A DNA stretch of 4,895 bases from IMG/VR virus record IMGVR_UViG_2571042621_000030; one strand, 5' to 3'. The DNA is from a virus (lineage: Duplodnaviria; Heunggongvirae; Uroviricota; Caudoviricetes). The notes under the pieces were generated by a model. That model was not told the DNA's origin. It ran no database searches and saw only the letters and a list, made by a program, of their open reading frames with translations. Of this stretch, positions 3,641-4,895 are shown piece after piece. The translations under genes and the position numbers were made by a program. Position 1 is the first letter of the stretch; each line of letters begins with the position of its first letter.

Positions 3641-3844
3641 CAGGAGTGGAACGCTCGCCAGCGACGCCCAAGAAGCCTTGAAACAGTTCGTCGATGGGTG
3701 CGCGAATGCAGGATATTCCCTCCTCCGGTTAAGGATGGAAGAGAGTATCTGTTCCACGAATCAGCGGTAAAGGTTGACTTAAATCGACCAGTAACAGGTA
3801 GCCTTTTGAAGAGGATCAGAAATGGGAAGAAGGCGAAGTCATGA
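3626..3844 (+). CDS. xis: Excisionase Xis (72 aa), lambda-type
   Basis: The translation MYLTLQEWNARQRRPRSLETVRRWVRECRIFPPPVKDGREYLFHESAVKVDLNRPVTGSLLKRIRNGKKAKS matches lambda Xis as I recall it, apparently in full. GGAG at 3614-3617 precedes ATG 3626; the 3' end overlaps int by 23 nt as in lambda. Confidence 0.95.
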   Translation: MYLTLQEWNARQRRPRSLETVRRWVRECRIFPPPVKDGREYLFHESAVKVDLNRPVTGSLLKRIRNGKKAKS

Positions 3845-4895
3845 GCGCCGGGATTTACCCCCTAACCTTTATATAAGAAACAATGGATATTACTGCTACA
3901 GGGACCCAAGGACGGGTAAAGAGTTTGGATTAGGCCGAGACAGGAGGATAGCAATCACTGAAGCAATACAGGCCAATATTGAGTTACTCTCAGACAGCGG
4001 ACGCAAATCACTGATAGACAGAATTAAAGGCGGTGACGCAATCACTCTTCATGTGTGGCTTGACCGATATGAAAGAATCCTCACCGAAAGAGGGATCAGG
4101 CCGAAAACTCTACTCGACTACGCCAGCAAAATCAGGGCAATCCGAAGAAAATTGCCGGACAAACCGCTCACTGACATATCAACGAAAGAAGTGGCAGCAA
4201 TGCTAAACACCTACGTGGCAGAAGGTAAAGCAGCTTCCGCAAAATTAATCAGGTCAACCCTTGTTGACGTTTTTCGTGAAGCAATAGCCGAGGGGCATGT
4301 TGCAACGAATCCGGTAACAGCAACCCGTACAGCAAAGTCAGAAGTAAGGCGCTCAAGGCTGACAGCTAATGAGTATGTCGAGATTTACCATGCAGCCGAA
4401 CCTCTCCCTATCTGGCTAAGGCTGGCGATGGATTTGGCCGTCGTTACAGGGCAGAGAGTCGGCGATTTGTGCAGAATGAAATGGTCAGACATAAACGACA
4501 ACCATCTTCACATTGAACAGAGTAAAACAGGGGCTAAACTCGCCATTCCGCTAACGCTAACGATTGACGCGCTCAATATCTCATTGGCTGATACACTACA
4601 GAAATGCAGGGAGGCCAGCAGCAGTGAAACTATAATCGCATCAAAGCATCACGATCCGCTTTCCCCGAAAACAGTATCAAAGTATTTTACAAAGGCGAGA
4701 AATGCATCTGGACTCTCATTTGATGGAAACCCGCCAACATTCCATGAACTGCGTAGCCTGTCAGCGAGGCTATACCGGAACCAGATTGGCGATAAGTTTG
4801 CTCAACGTCTTCTCGGGCATAAATCAGATTTAATGGCGGCGCGGTATAGGGACAGCCGTGGACGGGAATGGGACAAAATTGAAATCGACAAATGA
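3822..4895 (+). CDS. int: Tyrosine integrase, lambda Int family with HK022-type core specificity (357 aa)
   Basis: The N-terminal 55 residues (MGRRRSHERRDLPPNLYIRNNGYYCYRDPRTGKEFGLGRDRRIAITEAIQANIEL) match the lambda Int arm-binding domain. The catalytic residues align colinearly with lambda R212, K235, H308, R311, H333 and Y342 (GQRVGD, EQSKTGAK, FHELRSLSARL, LLGHKSD, AARYRD). The rest is diverged from lambda, and positions 99/282/283/287/319 are D/P/K/K/R. Confidence 0.95.
   Translation: MGRRRSHERRDLPPNLYIRNNGYYCYRDPRTGKEFGLGRDRRIAITEAIQANIELLSDSGRKSLIDRIKGGDAITLHVWLDRYERILTERGIRPKTLLDYASKIRAIRRKLPDKPLTDISTKEVAAMLNTYVAEGKAASAKLIRSTLVDVFREAIAEGHVATNPVTATRTAKSEVRRSRLTANEYVEIYHAAEPLPIWLRLAMDLAVVTGQRVGDLCRMKWSDINDNHLHIEQSKTGAKLAIPLTLTIDALNISLADTLQKCREASSSETIIASKHHDPLSPKTVSKYFTKARNASGLSFDGNPPTFHELRSLSARLYRNQIGDKFAQRLLGHKSDLMAARYRDSRGREWDKIEIDK

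Follow-up and report, generated by a model that had tools for sequence, protein, structure and literature searches.

The int reading frame in the 4,895-nucleotide stretch of DNA analysed here (the window) is almost certainly the integrase gene of a Stx1a-converting lambdoid prophage of E. coli O26:H11, of the H19 / H19J / Stx1a_11KH263 type, and its sequence marks the product as a natural HK022-family allele. Over its full 4895 nt the window matches the Stx1a-converting phage Stx1a_11KH263 (LC744179) at 100%, and positions 798-4895 are 99.9% identical to the int/xis region of phage H19J (AJ236875, 1999), which comes from the E. coli O26:H- strain H19. The window also occurs at 99.9-100% identity in eight complete E. 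coli genomes, including those of O26:H11 FWSEC0001 and strain H19. Compared with H19J and Stx1a_11KH263 this is essentially the same DNA, with no difference of substance. The Stx1a phages of O26:H11 ST21 clade C1, to which strain H19 belongs, were placed at the torS-torT intergenic region by Yano et al. 2023 (PMC10042803). The integrase is already known in each of these respects: the sequence entered GenBank in 1999, the protein falls within the HK022 Int family, and the integration site is on record in the literature. The main value of the analysis lies in the correct annotation of the window as the int-xis end of an O26:H11 Stx1a prophage (H19 type).

A single residue separates the integrase encoded by the window from that of H19J in AJ236875, which has N131 in place of Y131 (codon 131, 4212-4214). 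The complete H19 genome agrees with the window at 100%, so that the N131 of AJ236875 could reflect a sequencing error or a variant of the strain.

Organisation of the integrase

The integrase (Int) aligns with lambda Int (J02459 27812-28882) and HK022 Int (X51962) without gaps through residue 355 in a MAFFT alignment that also included H19J Int. One extra residue relative to lambda Int, D356, is found just before the C-terminal lysine. The homology extends over the full length with a megablast E of 0, which excludes a chance pattern. Pfam recognises an N-terminal arm-binding domain (PF09003 Arm-DNA-bind_1, residues 1-68, 99.3 bits against a cutoff of 22), a core-binding SAM-like domain at residues 81-170 (PF02899, 52.5 bits; PF22022, 39.2 bits), and a tyrosine-recombinase catalytic domain (PF00589, residues 179-346, 139.1 bits). 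Structures of lambda Int (5j0n, 1z1g, and 1z1b) head the PDB matches at E about 1e-176, and the catalytic set R212, K235, H308, R311, H333, and Y342 is retained in full (6/6) relative to lambda Int. With its arm domain, core-binding and catalytic domains, attP layout, and overlapping xis, Int belongs, as judged from sequence, to the lambda-family heterobivalent tyrosine integrases. The features of the window are collected in Table 1.

Table 1. Features of the integration module and its upstream flank, in window coordinates.
Feature	Positions	Strand	Basis or remark
Terminator-like hairpin and T-run after ORF 3404..3586	3576..3605	+	Consensus scan
TTGCGTGTAATTGC, TTGC-N6-TTGC box just 5' of the xis ATG	3600..3613	+	Position of the lambda cII-dependent pI promoter; putative function
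xis, excisionase, 72 aa	3626..3844	+	Pfam PF07825 Exc, 139 bits
int, HK022-type heterobivalent tyrosine integrase, 357 aa	3822..4895	+	Intact ORF
int codons 1-55, arm-type DNA-binding domain	3822..3986	+	55/55 aa identity among window, lambda, and HK022
Codon D99 (lambda N99), core-binding-domain specificity residue	4116..4118 (gac)	+	Alignment; N99D switch (PMC10863862)
Codons P282, K283, K287 (lambda S282, G283, R287), catalytic-domain specificity residues	4665..4682	+	Alignment; P282 K283 at 4665-4670 (ccg aaa), K287 at 4680-4682 (aag)
Codon R319 (lambda E319), specificity residue	4776..4778 (cgg)	+	Alignment
Catalytic tyrosine codon Y342	4845..4847	+	Lambda Int numbering; conserved
First 7 nt (CAAATGA) of the presumptive P'3 arm-type site, overlapping the int stop codon	4889..4895	+	Reconstructed attP compared with HK022 and lambda attP

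Core-specificity residues

Int carries D99, P282, K283, K287, and R319 at the positions where lambda Int has N99, S282, G283, R287, and E319. HK022 Int has the same residue as Int at all five positions and lambda Int at none (5/5 and 0/5, respectively). The first-pass annotation had named these five differences and had described them as HK022-type; this comparison was accurate, both in the residues themselves and in their assignment to HK022. The same set (DPKKR) is found in the Ints of mEp235, Gally, Stx1a_NIID112183, Stx1a_EH2115, and H19J, that is, in every other HK022-type allele examined. Lambda Int proper is defined by the alternative five residues together with the lambda core, and Int differs from it at 5/5 of these positions.

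The list of changes that turns lambda Int towards HK022 specificity, N99D, S282P, G283K, R287K, and E319R, reportedly goes back to Dorgai et al. 1995 (Dorgai, Yagil and Weisberg, J Mol Biol). The full five-substitution list was not found in the literature searched, where only the number of five residues and the N99D change were confirmed. Five residues explain the difference in specificity between lambda and HK022 (PMC6007267, citing Yagil et al. 1995), and N99D is described elsewhere as the residue switching lambda specificity to that of HK022 (PMC10863862).

Attachment sites and integration at torS-torT

Lambda integrates at gal-bio. The att sites of the element in the window lie beyond the window's end and were read from records 100% or 99.9% identical to it, with attP rebuilt by joining the two prophage ends in LC744179 and compared visually with the phage-form H19J sequence over the extent of that clone. 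At the int-side junction of LC744179 and strain H19, the P' arm-type sites come after int, and CAACTTA-TTCACCT-TAAGTGC leads from them to torS, which starts with GTG. At the opposite end of the prophage, LC744179 reads ATCCTTT-AGGTGAA-AAAGGTT and continues into the start of torT. The empty K-12 site is GCACTTT-AGGTGAA-AAAGGTT, located 8 bp upstream of the torS start codon within the 82-bp torS-torT spacer.

The phage-form H19J sequence carries CAACTTATTCACCTAAAGGAT, which equals the annotated HK022 attP core, and the 21-bp core ATCCTTT-AGGTGAA-TAAGTTG is identical to that of HK022 in both the H19J phage form and the rebuilt attP. The lambda core, CAGCTTT-TTTATAC-TAAGTTG, differs in its overlap, which in the window-type phage is AGGTGAA as in HK022. 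Beyond the core, the rebuilt attP aligns with those of HK022 and lambda, with conserved P2 (AGTCACTAT), P1 (TTAGTGACC), and P'3-P'1 sites, and the sib/terminator sequence downstream is also conserved with both phages. The names and positions of the arm-type sites (P'3 at 4889..4895, with P'2, P'1, the core, and the P arm beyond) follow those of the lambda attP and are presumptive here. An HK022-type attB, as opposed to the lambda site at gal-bio, had been predicted from the sequence of the window, together with the suggestion to look for an att core and arm-type repeats just 3' of it and to identify the flanking host genes. The prediction is borne out: in records that match the window at 100%, torS and torT flank the prophage, its core is that of HK022 and not of lambda, and the arm-type repeats resemble those of lambda and HK022.

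The attB of HK022 is a 21-bp B-O-B' site, in which the 7-bp overlap may be arbitrary as long as it is identical in both partners (PMC7736782). Following the standard lambda/HK022 pathway, the N-terminal domain of Int (residues 1-64) would bind the arm-type sites P1, P2, and P'1-P'3 of attP, while the core-binding and catalytic domains with D99, P282, K283, K287, and R319 would bind HK022-type core half-sites (xxCTTx), so that Int would bridge arm-type and core-type sites within the attP intasome. This intasome would capture attB at torS-torT. Y342 would then be expected to cleave at the edges of the 7-bp overlap AGGTGAA, with strand exchange via a Holliday junction, and attP ATCCTTT-AGGTGAA-TAAGTTG would recombine with attB GCACTT[T/A]-AGGTGAA-AAAGGTT. 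Xis, identical to that of HK022, would redirect the reaction to excision.

Of 5426 genomes, 5215 have an unbroken torS-torT site; in 196 records it is divided between two places, pointing to an occupancy of roughly 4%.

Host polymorphism at attB and divergence from HK022 Int

E. coli strains differ in the B half-site of the HK022 attB, which is GCACTTT in K-12 (L007:5187-5207) and GCACTTA in the attL of O26 strain H19 (L006:9966-9986). A phage-derived or post-integration origin of the attL A was considered and rejected, as the A allele is common in unoccupied sites. At 100% identity over 225 nt, a synthetic empty site with this allele is found in many genomes, among them those of O26, O111, and O103 strains with an unoccupied site. 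They include O26 strains in which the Stx1a phage shares only positions 1-3613 with the window and is without this int module. The difference between GCACTTA and GCACTTT is a host polymorphism.

Int is 96.4% identical to HK022 Int at the amino acid level and 95.3% at the nucleotide level over the full length, with 13 substitutions from HK022 to the window (G58D, N59S, R60G, E62K, A71G, A78V, T85R, S88T, A117T, S137A, A187E, Q261K, and S337L). Ten of the 13 fall within residues 58-137, which comprise the linker and the core-binding domain. This clustering, together with the GCACTTA of the O26 attL as opposed to the GCACTTT of K-12, would be the basis for regarding Int as a functionally distinct HK022 Int variant with an altered core or site preference, for instance one tuned to GCACTTA. 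Such a shift in preference is very improbable. The five known specificity positions are all as in HK022 Int (0/5 altered), GCACTTA is a common host polymorphism present in the unoccupied sites of many strains, and the NIID112183 allele, which is HK022-like at most of the substituted positions, is found at the same GCACTTA junction. Furthermore, the B/B' requirements of HK022 are reducible to 5 bp (PMC7736782). There is likewise only a slight chance that the cluster at residues 58-137 tunes core-site affinity or intasome geometry for the GCACTTA of O26 and other STEC hosts.

It is just as doubtful that the integrase survives only as a non-functional remnant in a fixed prophage, although in strain H19 several of the early-region genes nearby are annotated by PGAP as pseudogenes and the related int copies in O157:H7 are frameshifted remnants. 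The int ORF of the window is intact with all catalytic residues present, and AJ236875 (H19J) contains an intact attP and hence represents phage-form DNA, which implies excision. Stx1 production dependent on prophage induction has also been reported for strain H19 (PMC10042803).

Relationship to HK022 and lambda Int

The amino-terminal part of Int is nearly indistinguishable from that of lambda, and this had been presented in the first-pass annotation as a noteworthy pairing of a lambda-identical arm-binding domain with HK022-type core residues. The identity to lambda is complete for residues 1-55, but over the whole domain (residues 1-64) it amounts to 58/64, so that only the first part of the description stands. 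The pairing itself is not distinctive, as HK022 Int shares residues 1-55 with lambda.

In a sliding nucleotide comparison, the window, lambda, and HK022 agree at 90-100% throughout xis and over roughly the first 150 nt of int. Measured in segments of 60 nt, the identity of the window to lambda is 0.90-1.00 for segment starts up to 3926, about 0.75 at 3956, and about 0.55-0.7 thereafter. The fall occurs near codon 55, at about position 3980, and HK022 compared with lambda drops at the same place. Because HK022 and lambda show the same step, the lambda-identical N-terminus belongs to the whole HK022 Int lineage. A recent recombinant, in which a lambda xis and int 5' part was joined to an HK022 int 3' part in this phage, might be read from the nucleotide identity to lambda (95-100% from xis to about 3950, about 60-70% after) and from the lambda-like colinearity upstream of xis, but is the least probable of the alternatives and was rejected: the same step in HK022 places the junction before this phage, Xis has S59 (the HK022 allele) and not the G59 of lambda, and the same architecture is present in mEp235, Gally, and three further Stx1a phages, which are all the other HK022-type alleles examined.

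The alignments instead indicate that Int is a natural HK022 Int allele over its whole length, with nothing newly combined. Relative to HK022 (X51962 / NC_002166 gp29, 357 aa) the length of Int, the five specificity residues and the catalytic residues, Xis, the attP core, and the torS-torT attB are the same, and the arm-type sites are conserved. It differs from HK022 in the 13 substitutions, in a P arm that has diverged between the core and P2, and in its carrier, which is a Stx1a-converting lambdoid phage and not HK022. With lambda Int (PDB 1z1g, 5j0n) it shares the three-domain layout, the catalytic residues, and residues 1-55, and the arm-type sites are similar; however, the overall identity is 74.8% and D, P, K, K, and R replace N99, S282, G283, R287, and E319.

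The same five residues at other loci

E. coli records with 90% identity or more to the lambda-divergent part of int (3990-4895) number 401, well above the 196 in which the torS-torT site is split. Two relatives at other loci were inspected, each at its int-proximal junction. Their Ints have DPKKR and intact catalytic residues, and are about 94.5% identical to the window in nucleotides (3990-4895) and about 95% in amino acids. In the O111:H8 strain SF26 102-1 (L015:2315-3420) the junction is CAACTTC-CATGTCA-TAAGTTG at the 3' end of yfaT, where the empty K-12 site reads GTCCTTC-CATGTCA-TAAGTTG (about L019:2405-2430). In strain 22-250 (L017:2333-3500) it is CAACTTA-CCTTATT-TAAGGCC at the 3' end of sibB, upstream of mdtA, and the empty K-12 site reads CTTT-CCTTATT-TATGGCC (L018:743-765). 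The half-sites of both relatives keep the xxCTTx pattern and the overlaps differ.

As the same DPKKR set occurs at yfaT and sibB, the five residues alone do not fix the chromosomal locus. The five residues set core half-site recognition and the 7-bp attP overlap selects the locus. HK022-type integrases with the same five residues occupy at least three loci, depending on this overlap. The attP core and overlap lie outside the window, hence the locus is not derivable from the protein alone. The step from residues to attB taken in the first-pass annotation thus arrived at the correct site for this element by incomplete reasoning, and prediction of a chromosomal attachment site from residues is insufficient by itself.

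A further HK022-like int is found in O157:H7 genomes (SS17, L016:2393-3387), as a frameshifted, N-terminally truncated remnant with 87.9% nucleotide identity. It adjoins the effector genes nleA, nleH1-2, and nleF.

Excisionase and upstream region

The xis gene overlaps the start of int by 23 nt, as in lambda and HK022. Its product had been described as a retained lambda-type Xis. It is indeed only one residue from lambda Xis (71/72, S59 in place of G59), but the exact match is to the HK022 allele (72/72).

The TTGC-N6-TTGC box has the same letters in the window, HK022, and lambda, and the mEp235 record annotates the same motif as a putative lambda cII binding site. This suggests lambda-like, cII-dependent expression of int from pI. 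A scan of 3300-4895 for sigma-70 consensus promoters found none, which is expected for a cII-dependent pI and is therefore uninformative either way.

The terminator-like hairpin at 3576..3605 is that of lambda except for one tail base, A3602, which is C in both lambda and HK022. ORF 3404..3586 and this terminator directly adjoin xis, as in lambda, and positions 3500-3600 are identical to lambda. The colinearity with lambda extends over 3402-3602; HK022 has about 410 bp extra between the homologous segment and xis. These comparisons show the early-left region to be a patchwork in which lambda-like and HK022-like pieces are combined.

Many Stx1a prophages of O26 strains are 99.9% identical to the window over positions 1-3613 and then continue into a different integration module, made up of a TorI-type excisionase and another tyrosine integrase. 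In the O26:H11 strain 11368 this integrase has an internal stop. The O26:H11 clade C2 strains, represented by 11368, carry their Stx1a phage at wrbA (PMC10042803). The break in homology lies inside the TTGC-N6-TTGC box just 5' of xis, a clean swap point for integration modules.

At the other end of the window, the first 128 nt of ORF 1..588 are 98% identical to the start of the Ea22-like gene of HK022, after which the sequences diverge, and ORF 552..1253 carries an Ead_Ea22 Pfam domain. The counterpart genes of window 1-1253 are marked by PGAP as partial or as pseudogenes in strains H19 and 11368, and this segment therefore looks like a rearranged Ea22 region.
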